61,861 bases of DNA from IMG/VR virus record IMGVR_UViG_3300020405_000676, positions 1 through 61,861 of that record. One strand, 5' to 3'. Under the pieces are notes generated by a model that did not search any database, was not told the origin of the DNA, and saw nothing but the letters and a program-made list of their open reading frames with translations. The position numbers and the translations under genes are program-made. Of the stretch, positions 329-16,887 are shown in pieces; the first letter of the stretch is position 1, and each line of letters begins with the position of its first letter. This DNA comes from a virus (taxonomy: Duplodnaviria; Caudoviricetes).

Positions 329-378
329 AATATTGTTTCCATAAAATGTTTACTATGTATTTATCTATTTACTCAAAA

Positions 379-404
379 GAAAAGGGTCGTTGCCGACCCT
401 TTTC
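379..404 (-). terminator. Intrinsic terminator
   Basis: GAAAAGGGTCG-TTGC-CGACCCTTTTC inverted repeat with U-rich tail on the minus strand, downstream of the 55-aa ORF. Confidence 0.85.
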
Positions 405-419
405 GTGTTTGGTGATCCA

Positions 420-587
420 TTATGCAGAATAAGATACACCGCGGTATGTGCCGCTTACTGGTGACTTAGACTTTTCTGCAACTATAGGATCGTGCTTGAT
501 GCCTCTGTAAATACCAGGCTGAGGTTGTACTTTCTCGGCTTTGATATTTTTAGGATCGTATGCGATACCTCTATATACTTTAGTCAT
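420..587 (-). CDS. 55-aa YRG-repeat peptide (DUF4278-like)
   Basis: MTKVYRGIAYDP...IYRGIKHDP...TYRGVSYSA; three YRG motifs; SD GAGGAGG; directly downstream of the glutamine riboswitch, the usual context of DUF4278. Confidence 0.85.
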   Translation of the reverse strand: MTKVYRGIAYDPKNIKAEKVQPQPGIYRGIKHDPIVAEKSKSPVSGTYRGVSYSA

Positions 588-613
588 ATCATCCTCCTCA
601 ATTAATTAAGTTA

Positions 614-746
614 GATGCGTTCCTTCGGTAACTGTCGGTCTCGTTCCCCAGGATGGGTACTTGCTTGCCTTTGTTTTTGTGAAAAACAAAGAGGTTTTCA
701 GGTTACTTACTTCCGTTCACTGCTACATTTAGAGTGAATGAACGAT
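614..746 (-). ncRNA. Glutamine riboswitch (glnA motif) with expanded P3
   Basis: Minus strand AUCGUUCAUUCAC...GUGAACGGAAGUA-AGUAAC...GUUACCGAAGGAACGCAUC matches the glnA aptamer pattern (CGUUCA...CGGAAGUA...CGAAGGAACG). Confidence 0.8.
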
Positions 747-814: not shown

Positions 815-822
815 TATTTATC
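815..822 (-). promoter_or_regulatory. Late-promoter-like box GATAAATA upstream of the riboswitch
   Basis: Same octamer recurs before many late genes in the window. Confidence 0.55.
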
Positions 823-1920
823 TTAAAGACTAAATCCTTTAAAGGAATCCTTGTCTACGTCTTGTTTTGTGCCGCCAATAACGTAACTGCTGATTTCTGT
901 TTCTTGAGGTGCTACTTGTACTTCTCCTCCGCTTATCCACTTTTGTGTCCAAGGTAAAGGATTTGTACCAGTATTAAATGGTGAATCTAATTTTACGGCA
1001 TGCATACGTTTGCCTGCAATAAATTCAATGTATTGTTTGAGCAGTTCTGCATTTAGTCCTATAATACTTCCGTCTTTGAACAAATAGTCTGCCCATTGTT
1101 TTTCTTGTTCAACTGCATCTAAGAACATTTGAGTACATTCCTCTTTTAGTTCTTTGGCAATTTTTTCATAATCTTTGTCATCTTGTGGTAAGATTTTTAG
1201 CATTTGTTGTGTACTTGCTAAATGTACATTTTCATCTCTAGCAATGAATTTAATAATTTTAGCATTGCCTTCCATTTTCTTTAATTCTGCAAATGCCCAA
1301 CTACATGCAAAACTTACATAAAAACGTACTCCTTCTAAAATGTTTACACTCATTATGCATTTATACAATGCTTTTTTATGCTCGTATTCATCATAACTTT
1401 GTAAGCCACGTTCTCTTGCTTGATTTTGTTCTATAAGTTTATCATAGTTTTCTGTGATAGCATCTGAACAATCAGTAATTTCTTTGATGTTTAACATTTC
1501 ATCAAACACTTTGCTAGGATCTGGATACACATTTCTAATAATATGTGTATAACTTCTGCTGTGAATTGTTTCTGAGAATGCCCAAGTTTCAATCCATGTT
1601 TCTAATTCAGGAACACTTACCACAGGTAATAATGCTAGATTAGGTGAACGTCCTTGTACACTATCTAATAGTATTTGTCTTTTTAAATTTGATGTAAAGA
1701 TATGCTTTTCAAAGTCTGTAAGGTCTTTGAAGTCTTTTGCATCTTTTAGAATATCAACTTCTTCAGGTCTCCAAAAGAAACCAAGTTGCTTTTCAGTTAA
1801 TTTTTCAAACTGCTTGTATTTAACCACATCAAATCTCTGGACATTAACTCCGCCGTTAGGGTCCAAAAACATTTTTGCTTTAGTATGATGTTTTTTATTT
1901 TTTGCATTAAATACTGTCAT
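823..1920 (-). CDS. nrdB: Ribonucleotide reductase class Ia beta subunit
   Basis: FFWRPEE, ETIHSRSYTH, EGVRFYVSFA, RDENVH and VAPQETE motifs. Confidence 0.98.
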   Translation of the reverse strand: MTVFNAKNKKHHTKAKMFLDPNGGVNVQRFDVVKYKQFEKLTEKQLGFFWRPEEVDILKDAKDFKDLTDFEKHIFTSNLKRQILLDSVQGRSPNLALLPVVSVPELETWIETWAFSETIHSRSYTHIIRNVYPDPSKVFDEMLNIKEITDCSDAITENYDKLIEQNQARERGLQSYDEYEHKKALYKCIMSVNILEGVRFYVSFACSWAFAELKKMEGNAKIIKFIARDENVHLASTQQMLKILPQDDKDYEKIAKELKEECTQMFLDAVEQEKQWADYLFKDGSIIGLNAELLKQYIEFIAGKRMHAVKLDSPFNTGTNPLPWTQKWISGGEVQVAPQETEISSYVIGGTKQDVDKDSFKGFSL

Positions 1921-4229
1921 TATATTTTACAACTGTCGCAATCGTCCTCGTCTTCAAAAGTATCCACTGTAGAAACCATATTTACTTCTAATACTTTTCT
2001 ACCTTCTTCTTTCTCGATATCTATTTCACCTTGTCCATCATGTGTGTTATTGTAATACAACTGCTTACCACCATATTTATAAAACATGATGAGATGTTGC
2101 AACAACAAACTCATAGGAACTTTTTCATCGTCAAAGTGTTCTGGATTATAAGATGTATTTACCGAAATACCCTGGTCTATGTACTTTTGTAGGACCGACA
2201 TAATCTTAAGATATCCTTCTGGGGACTTTTGGTCCCATAGTAAATCGTACTTGTTTTTTAATCTTGGATAACCCGGTACTACTTGTTTTAATACGCCATG
2301 TTTACTTTGCTTAACACTTACATAACTTCTAGGAGGTTCTATGCCGTTTGTACTGTTACTAATTTGTGCTGACGTTTCTGCTGGCATAAGTGCCATCAAT
2401 GTACTGTTTCTAATACCTGTTTCTTTTAATTGTTTTCTTAATCCTTCCCAATCAGCACGTTCTTGATGTTTTACTAACTCGTCTACATCTTTCTTGTATG
2501 TTTGATTAGGTGTAATACCTAAACTGTATTTTGTTTCGTTGCTCTTAGGACAAGCACCTTTCTCTACTGCCAAGTCTGCACTTGCTTTAATTAAGTAGTA
2601 ACTCCATGCTTCTGTCCATGTATCAACCATTTCTAAATTTGGTTCTTGATATGTACTATCATTTTTAGCCATCCAATATGCAAAATTAATAATACCAATT
2701 CCTAGTGGACGTCTGTTCATTGTGCTTTTATATGCCGCTGTAATTGGATACTCTTGATAGTCAAGTAATTCGTCTAATGCTCTAACAGCCAAATCACAAA
2801 CTTTTTCCATTTGTTCTAAACTTTTTATGGCACCCCAATTAATTGCACTTAAAGTACAAAGGCTTATTTCCCCTTCTGGATCTTCTATATTGTTTAAAGG
2901 TTTTGTTGGCAAATCAATTTCACAACACAAATTGCTTTGTTTAATTGGAGCAACATCTTCAATAAATGAGCCGTGTGTATTAGCATGGTCAACGTTCATT
3001 AAATATATTCTACCAGTATCTTTTCTTTCTTGTACAAAATTACTAAACAATTCTACTGCTGGTATAGACTTTTTCCTAATGCTAGTTTTTCTTTCTGCCG
3101 CTTCATATAGTTCTTTAAATTTGTCTTGGTCAGTAAAGAAAGCATCATAAACTTCTGGTACATCATTAGGAGAGAACAATGTAATATTACCGCCCTCAAT
3201 CAATCTTTCATACATAAGTTTATTAAACTGTACACCATAATCCATATGACGTACTCTATTATCTTCTGTGCCTTTGTTGTTCTTTAACACTAGCATATCT
3301 TCGATTTCTAAATGCCAAATAGGATAGTATAATGTAGCCGCTCCGCCTCTTACACCACCTTGACTGCAAGACTTAACTGCAGATTGGAATAATTTATAGA
3401 AAGGGATAACGCCTGTATGTGTTGCATCTCCACTCCTAATTTTGGAACCAATTGCTCTAATTCTTCCTGCACCAATGCCAATGCCTGCCTTTTGACTAAC
3501 ATACTTTACGATACTGCTACTGGTTGCGTTGATACTGTCTAAACTGTCATCTGTTTCAATTAGTACACAACTACTGAACTGTCTTTGTGGTGTACGCACA
3601 CCAGCCATAACAGGAGTAGGCAAACTAATTAAAAACTTACTAATAGCATCATAATAATCTTTGATGTATTTCATTCTTTTGTCTGCAGGATACTTTGCAA
3701 ACAATGTTGCGGCAATCATCATATATGCAACTTGTGGTGTTTCAAATATTTCACCTGTTGCTCTATTCTGTACTAGATACTTGCCACGGAATTGTTCCAT
3801 AGCCGCATAGGTCAGGTATTCGTCCCTACTGTGGTCTATAAAACTTTGTAATTCATTAATTTCATCTTTAGTGTATAGGTCTGTAAATTCAGGATCATAA
3901 AATCCTGCATCGATATTTTTTTGTACAATGTCACATAAACAAGGTGGTTCAAATACACCATAAACCATTTTACGCAGATGGTAGTTAATTAATCTACCTG
4001 CTACATATTGATAGTTTGGTGTTTCTTCTGATATAAGGTCAGCCGCACTTTTAATAAGTGTTTCTTGAATATCCTCTGTTTTGATTTTTTCGAAAAATTG
4101 AATTTGTGAATTAATTTCTACTTCACTGGCACTTACGCCTGTTATGCCTTCAACGGCATACATTACGACTTTGTGTAACTTGTCTATGTTTAAGTCTTCT
4201 AGTCGTCCGTCTCGTTTCTGTACTTGCAT
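1920..4229 (-). CDS. nrdA: Ribonucleotide reductase class Ia alpha subunit
   Basis: N-terminal ATP cone (VQKRDG), PTP, SSC, QSNLCCEI, MPAETS, C-terminal CxxC. Confidence 0.98.
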   Translation of the reverse strand: MQVQKRDGRLEDLNIDKLHKVVMYAVEGITGVSASEVEINSQIQFFEKIKTEDIQETLIKSAADLISEETPNYQYVAGRLINYHLRKMVYGVFEPPCLCDIVQKNIDAGFYDPEFTDLYTKDEINELQSFIDHSRDEYLTYAAMEQFRGKYLVQNRATGEIFETPQVAYMMIAATLFAKYPADKRMKYIKDYYDAISKFLISLPTPVMAGVRTPQRQFSSCVLIETDDSLDSINATSSSIVKYVSQKAGIGIGAGRIRAIGSKIRSGDATHTGVIPFYKLFQSAVKSCSQGGVRGGAATLYYPIWHLEIEDMLVLKNNKGTEDNRVRHMDYGVQFNKLMYERLIEGGNITLFSPNDVPEVYDAFFTDQDKFKELYEAAERKTSIRKKSIPAVELFSNFVQERKDTGRIYLMNVDHANTHGSFIEDVAPIKQSNLCCEIDLPTKPLNNIEDPEGEISLCTLSAINWGAIKSLEQMEKVCDLAVRALDELLDYQEYPITAAYKSTMNRRPLGIGIINFAYWMAKNDSTYQEPNLEMVDTWTEAWSYYLIKASADLAVEKGACPKSNETKYSLGITPNQTYKKDVDELVKHQERADWEGLRKQLKETGIRNSTLMALMPAETSAQISNSTNGIEPPRSYVSVKQSKHGVLKQVVPGYPRLKNKYDLLWDQKSPEGYLKIMSVLQKYIDQGISVNTSYNPEHFDDEKVPMSLLLQHLIMFYKYGGKQLYYNNTHDGQGEIDIEKEEGRKVLEVNMVSTVDTFEDEDDCDSCKI

Positions 4230-15198: not shown

Positions 15199-16887
15199 CT
15201 ACTTTTTCTTACGTCCGGACTTCATGTTGGCACACCAGTGATACATTTTTGACTTCTCACCACTGCTGTCTTTTGCTTTTTTGCGTAGACTTGTTACTGA
15301 ACCTTTACAACTTGCACCTGCACGTTTTACTCTGCCTGGACGACTTTTGCCTTTCTTTTTGCCGTCAGCAAAATTTTCTATAATCTCTGCTGGAATTACA
15401 TCTCTGCCAACACGTTTTGCTTGATACACTCTGTGAAAACCATCAAGTATTGTTTTGCCATCTACATCTAACAGTATTGGTTCATCTAAATCAACACCTA
15501 CATCTGGATCAACATCTATTACTCTACTAAAACGGTCATCATGTGCTTCGTCATCTAAGTCTGCTACTTTGACTTTGATTAGTTTGGTCTTTTTGCCTTT
15601 GATATAATCTTTAACAGCAGGATTTAGATTTCTTTCATCTAATTGTTCCAGTTCATCTATAAATGGTTGTGGGTCCATGTCTTGATTTTCAAACTCATCT
15701 ATAAAGTTTCTTAATTCAACTTGGTATGCTTTTTTTAAAATTCTTGGATCTTCGTTGCCAGTAAAGTTGCTAATCTTTTTTTTAACTGTATTCATATTGT
15801 CATCAAAGCCATGCTCTTCTTCTCTGTCTTGGCTCATATAGTCCCAAACATCTTTAAGCATTTTAACACCATTTATATTTACATACTCTCTTTTTACATA
15901 AGTGCCTGGAAAATTAATAACTTCTGCTTCTGACATTTTAGATTTAAGTAAATCTTTAAAATAGTTTTCCTGCATTACTGCTCTATCACTTGTTTTATCT
16001 TTGAATACATCCATTACTTTTTCTATGTCTGCGTCAACTATAATTGCAGGAACACGTTTAATACCTAGTATATTAGCGGCATCATATCTATGATGACCAT
16101 TTATCAAGTATCCTCTTCTATCTAAAATAAAAGGTCTGTCTACTTTTTTAAGAAATACGTCTTCTGCTTTTTTACTTAATCCATCTACACGTTGAGATTG
16201 TACAGGTTTTATTTTGTCTATACTAATTGTACCTTCTTTGTATTTTAAATCTGATTTATCTAAATGTTTTCTTCTAATTTGTGGCAATTGGTTTCTATCA
16301 AAATGTTTATCACTAACACCTCTATTATAACTTTCTTCTATACCTTTTCTTAAACGTATAACACCACAGGCAAGTCTTTCTCCTGCATTACCTGTTTTTA
16401 AACTTTCTTCATCTCCACCCAAACCTAAGTCATCTTCGTCTGCATGTATAACCATTGCTCTGCCTACAACACTTCGGTCACCACTCAAATCAACACGTCT
16501 TGCAACAATTTTGAATCTAGCAATACCTTGTTCATCTGCTACAATATTGCCTAAGTCGCCTACATGTCCTTGCATTAAGTCACCATGGTCAACTCCGTCT
16601 GGATTGTAATGACCTCCAGCACTATCACAACCATCACTAAGGTCGCCAAACTCATGTATATGTATTCCGTGTTTGCCAGGTTTAAGTCCTTTAATTTGTC
16701 CTCTGATTATTGTAGGTTTGTTTGGTTCTTGTTTTAAAACAATACCGCCTGATATATCGCCTTCAACATGTTCTAGTTGAACTACTGCTTTTACTATTTC
16801 TTCTGCTTCACTGATTGTGTTTAAAGATTCGCATTGGCAACTTTTTTCTTTTGTTCTAGGACAACTTTTGAATTCTGATGCTCTCAT
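15199..16887 (-). CDS. Cu/Zn superoxide dismutase fused to two ParB/Srx-like domains and a basic Cys module
   Basis: HGIHIHEFGD, SAGGHYNP, HVGDLGN, VIHADEDDLG, GNAGERLACG; LINGHHRY and ILDGFHRV. Confidence 0.9.
   Translation of the reverse strand: MRASEFKSCPRTKEKSCQCESLNTISEAEEIVKAVVQLEHVEGDISGGIVLKQEPNKPTIIRGQIKGLKPGKHGIHIHEFGDLSDGCDSAGGHYNPDGVDHGDLMQGHVGDLGNIVADEQGIARFKIVARRVDLSGDRSVVGRAMVIHADEDDLGLGGDEESLKTGNAGERLACGVIRLRKGIEESYNRGVSDKHFDRNQLPQIRRKHLDKSDLKYKEGTISIDKIKPVQSQRVDGLSKKAEDVFLKKVDRPFILDRRGYLINGHHRYDAANILGIKRVPAIIVDADIEKVMDVFKDKTSDRAVMQENYFKDLLKSKMSEAEVINFPGTYVKREYVNINGVKMLKDVWDYMSQDREEEHGFDDNMNTVKKKISNFTGNEDPRILKKAYQVELRNFIDEFENQDMDPQPFIDELEQLDERNLNPAVKDYIKGKKTKLIKVKVADLDDEAHDDRFSRVIDVDPDVGVDLDEPILLDVDGKTILDGFHRVYQAKRVGRDVIPAEIIENFADGKKKGKSRPGRVKRAGASCKGSVTSLRKKAKDSSGEKSKMYHWCANMKSGRKKK

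Follow-up and report, generated by a model that had tools for sequence, protein, structure and literature searches.

A glutamine-I riboswitch on a marine phage contig carries a conserved three-helix domain within its P3 arm

Descriptions of glutamine riboswitches present them as small elements of cyanobacteria. The window analysed here, which is the full 61,861-base stretch of an IMG/VR virus record (17% complete by estimate), holds one in which the P3 stem encloses dozens of nucleotides. This raises the question of whether the enclosed stretch is a tolerated loop or a domain in its own right, in which organisms it is at home, and what it could do for the switch that carries it. The first-pass annotation had proposed a phage variant of the glnA-type aptamer with an added sub-domain, without stating the strand; the element lies on the minus strand and has the following parts, with the basis of each assignment in brackets.

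614..746, minus strand: complete aptamer of the glutamine-I (glnA RNA) type with its long P3 arm (Rfam RF01739, 43.9 bits)
740..744, minus strand: P1 5' strand CGUUC, pairing with 622-618 (cmscan structure line)
716..738, minus strand: extended P2, UUCAC/GUGAA with inner CUA/UAG and loop AAUG (cmscan alignment)
708..715, minus strand: core strand J2/3, CGGAAGUA (consensus match)
702..706, minus strand: P3 5' strand GUAAC, pairing with 632-628 (sequence, covariation)
693..701, minus strand: arm junction strand J1, CUGAAAACC, with GAAAACC invariant (invariant columns, 74 distinct sequences)
668..692, minus strand: P3a hairpin with loop CAC (covariation of helix 2)
658..667, minus strand: arm strand J2, CAAGCAAGUA, with AGC and AGUA invariant (invariant columns)
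647..657, minus strand: P3b hairpin, CCC-AUCCU-GGG (covariation of helix 3)
633..646, minus strand: arm strand J3, GAACGAGACCGACA, with GAA and GAGACCGA invariant and C at least 90% conserved (invariant columns)
628..632, minus strand: P3 3' strand GUUAC (sequence, covariation)
618..627, minus strand: core strand CGAAGG, then P1 3' strand GAACG at 622-618 (consensus match)

A scan of the whole window against Rfam returned Glutamine (RF01739) as the sole family, at 746..614(-), with 43.9 bits and an E-value of 2.7e-6; the gathering cut-off of the family is 35 bits. The alignment covers model positions 1-53 of 53, has all upper-case consensus nucleotides in place, and skips 73 nt in the P3 loop. 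Accordingly, the conserved core strands CGUUCA, CGGAAGUA and CGAAGGAACGC are all found (at 744-739, 715-708 and 627-617), including the loop-E strands and the long-range G/C; numbered against the crystallised sequence given in the available text of PMC5393176 and against G23-C60 in that of PMC6212724, G713 is the G of this pair and C617 is its C. The copy leads a DUF4278 gene, in line with a family whose members precede nitrogen-related or DUF4278 genes, and what it lacks is the compact, short P3 hairpin. Since Rfam counts the 73 skipped nt as a loop insertion, a long P3 is nevertheless compatible with membership in RF01739. With z = -1.34 and -1.03, folding energy does not reach significance here, and the evidence comes from the covariance-model score and from covariation in 74 distinct relatives. 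At the level of sequence these data confirm that the phage has a genuine glutamine-I riboswitch whose core is intact, as had been proposed; glutamine would be its ligand, and it is reasonable to suppose that the phage uses it to read host glutamine.

The extended form of P2 is found again in the long-armed copies L006, L040 and L041 and in the second aptamer of the short-armed tandems L012, L026 and L034, where the outer stem differs by compensating changes; being common to long-armed and tandem copies, the inner CUA-AAUG-UAG form is independent of the P3 arm. The arm does have a cost in detection. Seven other long-armed copies scored 39-49 bits with cmscan, as compared to 58-63 bits for four short-armed ones, and a fast RF01739 genome search gave no match in the window's own record and partial, sub-threshold matches in SAR86, where cmscan exceeds the cut-off. 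Because cmscan scores the same copies above the cut-off, the misses reflect a limit of sensitivity and not absence. At 39-49 bits, long-armed copies are probably already listed as ordinary Rfam hits, while the loss of 10-20 bits and the misses of the fast search make it probable that nitrogen regulation in SAR86 and its phages is under-annotated.

The arm itself has the anatomy first proposed for it. P3 (GUAAC/GUUAC, 706-702 / 632-628) encloses 69 nt, 701-633, close to the 70 nt suggested; the predicted perfect 10-bp hairpin is found at 691-682 / 678-669, extended by U692-G668, and the smaller second hairpin, placed earlier at about 643-660, is found at 657-647. Within P3a, U692-G668 and C691-G669 are invariant, while the other nine pairs vary among relatives. 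Between the two strands of P3, GAAAACCUC is followed by a variable hairpin whose last letters are GG, then by nnAGCnAGUA, another hairpin of variable sequence and GAAc(a)GAGACCGA, in this order. The approximately 29 invariant junction nucleotides thus fall into three strands, GAAAACCUC, AGCnAGUA and GAAcGAGACCGA. Of the 22 distinct sequences with an extra U in J2 (AGCUAAGUA), all 22 have an extra A in J3 (GAACAGAG), and all three with a G in J2 have GAAA in J3, although both associations may reflect few events; insertions and substitutions matched in this way show that J2 and J3 lie opposite each other.

With AAGUA facing GAA beside a regular helix, the arm resembles a loop E or bulged-G (sarcin-ricin-type) module, and the same signature marks the E-loop of the glutamine core, for which the available text of PMC5393176 gives GAAGUAA / UGAAGC; the arm's version is identified by this sequence signature alone. 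We infer that AAGUA of J2 may be the 5' half of a loop-E-like module, and that the P3b arm would then be an irregular helix made up of P3b, the AAGUA/GAA module and a C-G pair. The remaining parts of the arm are free to change: P3a has 3-11 contiguous pairs and P3b has 0-5, the flanks between core and junction fall into a class of 5 nt (13 distinct sequences) and one of 8-10 nt (88), and the loops are variable. We also considered a conserved tetraloop contact and rejected it, as GNRA occurs in 39 of 102 P3b hairpins only; a K-turn at AGC/GAG seems improbable, the order of G and A residues being unlike that of the motif.

To what extent this anatomy is conserved was judged from relatives. A pattern of two core strands 63-93 nt apart retrieved at least 120 viral contigs, and among the viral matches listed there were 52 tandem aptamers, 64 window-like inserts, two other inserts and two apparent chance matches. 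The 39 distinct window-like inserts among the viral matches listed split cleanly at identical motifs, and the viral matches listed together with genome copies gave 74 distinct sequences with 32 invariant columns. RNAalifold, run on the raw MAFFT alignment, recovered three helices with compensating changes in 9 of 12 pairs. Once realigned to an insert covariance model, the set had standard pairs in 95.8% of 953 cells, as opposed to 34-54% when partners were slid by 1-3 columns; both sides change in 10 of 13 pairs (203 cells), and none of 500 shuffles reached the observed values. The realigned set is fitted to the insert model, which favours structure; the raw MAFFT alignment gives the same pairs. 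Helix 1 (P3) is 95.9% paired with both-side changes in three of four pairs, helix 2 (P3a) is 98.6% paired, with four of its six modelled pairs changing on both sides and two never varying, and helix 3 (P3b) is 89.9% paired with both-side changes in all three pairs. The P3 insert is a conserved three-helix domain and not a variable loop. Conserved nucleotides between covarying helices, here 32 invariant columns in a set in which 10 of 13 pairs change on both sides, are also what an independent aptamer class would have. The first-pass proposal of a real extra sub-domain therefore appears sound, the insert being, by its clean split and its covariation, neither variable nor dispensable.

The two other inserts (L004 813-891, plus strand; L079 5473-5552, plus strand) also sit in P3; in them GGAACG and CGUUCA, which are glutamine-core strands, are joined by a short linker and followed by a hairpin. 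The junction sequence of the window's arm is unrelated to them.

Among known systems, the type-1 glutamine riboswitch (the Synechocystis gifB/IF17 leader, in the available text of PMC6212724, and the crystallised Synechococcus aptamer) has the same P1-P2-P3 junction and conserved core nucleotides, and the window agrees with it in the loop-E strands, the long-range G/C, the DUF4278 gene downstream and the predicted pairing between the nucleotides after P1 and the ribosome-binding site (RBS). It differs in having, instead of a short P3 hairpin, a 69-nt three-way junction with about 29 invariant nucleotides; long-armed copies score approximately 10-20 bits lower, and their carriers are SAR86 and marine phages instead of cyanobacteria. 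Tandem glutamine riboswitches, in which two short aptamers follow one another (Weinberg et al. 2010, PMC2864571), place a similar amount of additional conserved RNA in leaders of this kind, and three of them (L026, L034 and L057) sit on related phage contigs with small ORFs downstream and the P2 type of the window. In tandems, however, the second aptamer stands beside the first, whereas the window's arm lies inside P3; without a further set of core nucleotides, the arm does not count as another glutamine aptamer. Riboswitches of this class are known from marine phages, where they have been linked to a two-piece tmRNA (available text of PMC9004378), and in SAR86 (available text of PMC12379486). 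We found no published description of the arm in a search that did not extend to Ames and Breaker 2011, Ren et al. 2015 or supplements (including Additional file 1 of PMC2864571). The class is thus known, and the conserved extra domain in P3 appears to be the new part.

Where the domain is at home becomes clear from its distribution. An insert-only pattern, run on one genome per bacterial or archaeal species, gave 49 matches: 43 in SAR86, four in Gammaproteobacteria assemblies, one on a 24.9-kb contig of a Flavobacteriales bin that has a phage-type leader, and one chance match in Prevotella. A glutamine core encloses the insert in 48 of the 49. The insert model was positive in 36 of 121 SAR86-order genomes, which are small (1.0-1.6 Mb) and have a single copy in 35 of 36 cases, and in none of 150 sampled genomes of other Gammaproteobacteria. 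Over all fetched loci, 169 of 172 exact motif matches were embedded in a glutamine core, one was cut by a contig end and two were chance; no stand-alone arm occurred in 875 kb of loci, where all 57 strong matches were embedded and three further ones had E-values of 0.2-0.9. An independent aptamer class would be expected as a self-standing unit in several leaders, which the arm is not.

The link to the gene downstream is equally tight. An ORF with YRG repeats (DUF4278) follows at ~30-70 nt in 112 of 113 long-armed copies, the remaining copy being cut; among short-armed single aptamers (those with at least 200 nt downstream, earlier-fetched loci excluded) it follows 18 of 93. As short-armed singles also precede YRG genes, the arm is not required for control of these genes, and on the same count we rejected the idea that it substitutes for the second aptamer of a tandem. 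From the genome distribution, the embedding and the YRG link, the domain belongs to one cassette that is at home in SAR86. It is native to SAR86 and shared with marine phages, and the three-way junction is inherited with the cassette from SAR86-type bacteria. It is thus not a phage invention, as 47 of the 49 genome matches are in SAR86/Gammaproteobacteria and 36 of 121 SAR86-order genomes carry the domain. SAR86 is among the most abundant surface-ocean heterotrophs. The same sensor, then, seems to carry a second domain that is conserved as strongly as the ligand pocket, in tiny SAR86 genomes and in large marine phages.

Two observations were made alongside. The SAR86 genome G005 has, besides a long-armed copy before a YRG gene, a short-armed aptamer (63.9 bits; L170 ~1501-1558, minus strand), which precedes an ORF with an N-terminus that appears to resemble the large subunit of glutamate synthase. 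The viral contig L024 (32.9 kb) has a permuted tmRNA at 1887-2122 on the plus strand (RF04321, 112 bits; alpha_tmRNA, 94 bits), 3.3 kb from its long-armed riboswitch, which recalls the link between tmRNA and riboswitch in phage Melnitz (available text of PMC9004378).

The window's own genes point to its source. They include a large terminase (E 4e-125), a 927-aa tail sheath (E 3e-240), a virion protein and helicases, and all 25 ORFs of at least 300 aa are on the minus strand, none on the plus strand. The nearest relatives of its NrdA are in Stenotrophomonas/Xanthomonas phages and Escherichia phages (records of 348-371 kb) at 59-62% identity; with NrdA nearest to gammaproteobacterial phages, a cyanophage origin was rejected. 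There was no DNA match to named phages among 50,697 phage records in either near or distant mode, and neither tRNA nor tmRNA in the whole window, where they were looked for in view of the riboswitch-tmRNA link in phages (available text of PMC9004378). Given the terminase and sheath genes, the NrdA kinship and the lack of a named-phage DNA match, we read the window as part of the genome of a large marine myovirus, probably of jumbo size, and not of a cyanophage. A further ORF of 562 aa (15199-16887, minus strand) has an N-terminal part like superoxide dismutase (phrog_1975, E 1e-17) and another part that resembles ParB (E 7e-11). The riboswitch is set among the following features.

4229..1920, minus strand: nrdA, upstream of the riboswitch unit
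1920..823, minus strand: nrdB, between nrdA and the riboswitch unit
815..822, minus strand: GATAAATA, a 7/8 match to the T4-type late promoter, directly 3' of the nrdB stop
590..617, minus strand: predicted RBS-hiding hairpin (MFE -9.0 kcal/mol)
593..599, minus strand: Shine-Dalgarno sequence GAGGAGG (sequence)
587-585, minus strand: start codon AUG (ORF list)
420..587, minus strand: 55-aa ORF with three YRG repeats (DUF4278; Pfam PF14105, E 1.1e-8, 35.7 bits, cut-off 25.3)
375..404, minus strand: terminator-like hairpin of 11 bp (6 G-C), then UUUU (consensus scan)

The DUF4278 gene that had been expected downstream is thus present, as ORF 587..420(-), and starts 27 nt past the end of the aptamer. 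The T4-type late promoter motif is TATAAATA; in relatives, an exact TATAAATA sits 6-8 nt upstream of P1, and GATAAATA at 822-815 may act as a late-type promoter here. The terminator consensus scan gave three sites, with 0.3 expected. The locus would accordingly read as a small stand-alone unit running from late-type promoter through riboswitch and 55-aa YRG/DUF4278 gene to terminator.

For type-1 glutamine riboswitches, the available text of PMC6212724 describes that glutamine binding reorients P3 and creates the long-range G-C pair; that in the Synechocystis gifB leader the long-range C and the nucleotides after it can pair with the RBS, so that glutamine would free the site; and that reporter expression goes up after the addition of ammonium. 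A corresponding hairpin is predicted in the window, where C617-A616-U615-C614-U613 pair with 594-590 and 610-606 with 601-597, covering GAGGAGG. The same design, with differing sequences, is predicted in 12 of the 21 distinct leader tails folded, these 12 being the tails of the window's subgroup, and is also present in the whole-leader MFE. We thus suggest that in the absence of glutamine C617 and the following nucleotides would pair with the Shine-Dalgarno region (617-590) and block ribosomes. With glutamine bound, P1 would close and C617 would enter the long-range pair with G713; the hairpin 617-590 would then open, and the protein would be made when glutamine is plentiful. This model follows the one proposed in PMC6212724. 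Since the hairpin is predicted in leader tails as well as in the whole leader, the arm and the expression platform appear to be distinct parts. The switch model applies to the window's subgroup only, because the hairpin that follows P1 in SAR86 copies and in some phage copies leaves the RBS out.

A second element, GAGAAGGGUGU, a hairpin and GUACGAAAUCGAnACGAAAACUGGAGG, is seen between aptamer and start codon in SAR86 loci L121-L169 (for example L125 ~5160-5100, minus strand) and in part of the phage copies, such as the viral loci L001, L030 and L038, and starts at the C just past P1. In the fetched loci, all 106 of its 106 occurrences are behind long-armed aptamers; it lies outside the RBS and is absent from the window.

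What, then, does the arm do? We consider it moderately probable that the window holds a long-armed glutamine riboswitch with a Shine-Dalgarno-hiding switch hairpin and an arm on P3 that is a cis-acting accessory fold. P3 is a mobile arm that projects to one side, away from the ligand pocket (available text of PMC5393176, PMC6698751 and PMC6212724), and it is this arm, which swings upon glutamine binding, that the accessory fold would close and stiffen, thereby setting the glutamine response of the window's leader; it would not be the part that hides the RBS. We favour an accessory fold because the domain is never found alone, sits on a mobile arm, and is kept where the downstream GAGAAGGGUGU/GUACGAAAUCGAnACGAAAACUGGAGG element is missing. 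Against a docking or stiffening role, the tips of P3a and P3b are not conserved, one fixed contact between arm and core is hard to picture with two length classes of P3 (13 vs 88 sequences), and short-armed single aptamers precede YRG genes as well. If the arm only tunes folding, it would show how a low-affinity aptamer has been adapted to a different cell. The approximately 29 invariant junction nucleotides, on the other hand, appear to exceed what a mere strut needs and resemble a binding pocket.

This last point leads to the strongest competing explanation, that the arm is a second input, with the junction as a pocket for a metabolite (for example one of carbon/nitrogen status) or a protein, for which the YRG product is one possibility. 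Only with the partner bound would P3, and hence the glutamine sensor, fold properly, giving a nested two-signal switch. So many invariant nucleotides between freely varying helices are the usual look of an aptamer core, and in 13 distinct sequences P3 has only 3 bp (GAC/GUC), so that its closure should need a folded junction; most copies, however, have a P3 of 6-8 bp, which should be stable whatever the state of the junction. The inserts of L004 and L079 demonstrate that nesting of aptamer-like elements occurs at P3, and the arm is tied to one gene family in 112 of 113 copies. Independent aptamers, though, usually occur in several contexts, and this domain is found neither alone nor before other genes; its absence outside glutamine aptamers makes a free-standing form of the second sensor raised in the first-pass annotation less likely. 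Moreover, the insert matches no Rfam family. We therefore regard a second input as rather unlikely. Should the arm bind something after all, it would present a new ligand or protein site and a natural nested two-signal RNA logic: a two-input RNA gate of SAR86 and its phages, in which one aptamer is built into a stem of another and the glutamine switch answers only to both signals together.

Less likely still, and in our view improbable, is that the arm acts by alternative pairing, either with GAACG (646-642) capturing the P1 5' strand CGUUC or with ACCUC serving as an anti-Shine-Dalgarno sequence, to give a competing OFF fold. The RNAfold MFE of the window's leader does use CGUUC/GAACGA, and the two forced folds are close (mean +2.0 kcal/mol), the alternative being lower in 5 of 81 sequences including the window. 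Yet in 28 of 109 distinct sequences (24 with GAACA, 4 with GAAAG) the decoy cannot pair over all of its 5 nt, and P1 has no change that compensates for these variants. As for ACCUC, it is invariant and complementary to a GGAGG-type RBS, but its C-U-C is locked by the invariant C-G and U-G pairs at the base of P3a, a local hairpin of 5-11 bp with which a long-range pairing of 4-5 bp could not compete; complementarity to the RBS never goes beyond CCUC(C) in any leader class, and the window has an RBS-hiding hairpin of its own. A pairing of the P3b loop AUCCU with AGGAU of the RBS was considered as well and rejected, as the closest relative, L186, has AUUCA at this position.

That the insert is neutral or selfish, such as a mobile hairpin, a plus-strand terminator or a small ORF in a tolerant loop, is very improbable. 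The crystallised construct has in P3 what we take to be a protein-binding loop. The P3 tip thus tolerates replacement by a foreign loop (available text of PMC5393176), and the window's plus strand has the 10-bp hairpin followed by GGTTTTC and ORFs of 27 and 40 aa that overlap the region; but from SAR86 to diverse phage contigs the junction does not vary and the helices show covariation, the insert is present as a single copy per small SAR86-order genome and nowhere else in the loci, the plus-strand hairpin is not called a terminator on a strand that holds no ORF of at least 300 aa in the window, and compensating stem changes would destroy any reading frame.

We also looked for other RNA families. 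At E-values up to 10, positions 590-770 matched Glutamine and four chance rows (E 1.8-8.6) in Rfam, and ribozyme families gave no match in the same search. A hammerhead core has CUGANGA ... GAAA around three helices, and the window has CUGA after a helix; the invariant strand, however, is GAAAAC, and in 61 of 101 distinct sequences AG, GG or AA stands in place of the CU before it, so a hammerhead was rejected.

The first-pass annotation had further suggested a processing site in the insert. In metatranscriptome libraries from two studies, contigs of X10/X16 cover 404-737 with no difference; one in X17 covers 407-659 with two differing letters, and in X18 four overlapping pieces cover 501-733, one of them with two differing letters. 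Other RNA-library contigs reach 800 and 809, and none has a joint inside the arm. As the contigs run unbroken through the insert, nothing points to a processing site, although rare cleavage would be invisible to contigs. The arm is present in the content of RNA libraries, which falls short of proving transcription, as such libraries can contain DNA. Contigs of the two studies end at 404 and 407, by the terminator-like hairpin, which is a weak hint; 250-403 and 810-1100 are uncovered, and these contigs give no evidence for transcript ends. In X16, a contig of 255 nt with a depth of 601 matches only the conserved J3/P3/P1 stretch (617-648) and is unlike the window's flanks on both sides; it is a relative of the window's riboswitch that is very abundant in that library.
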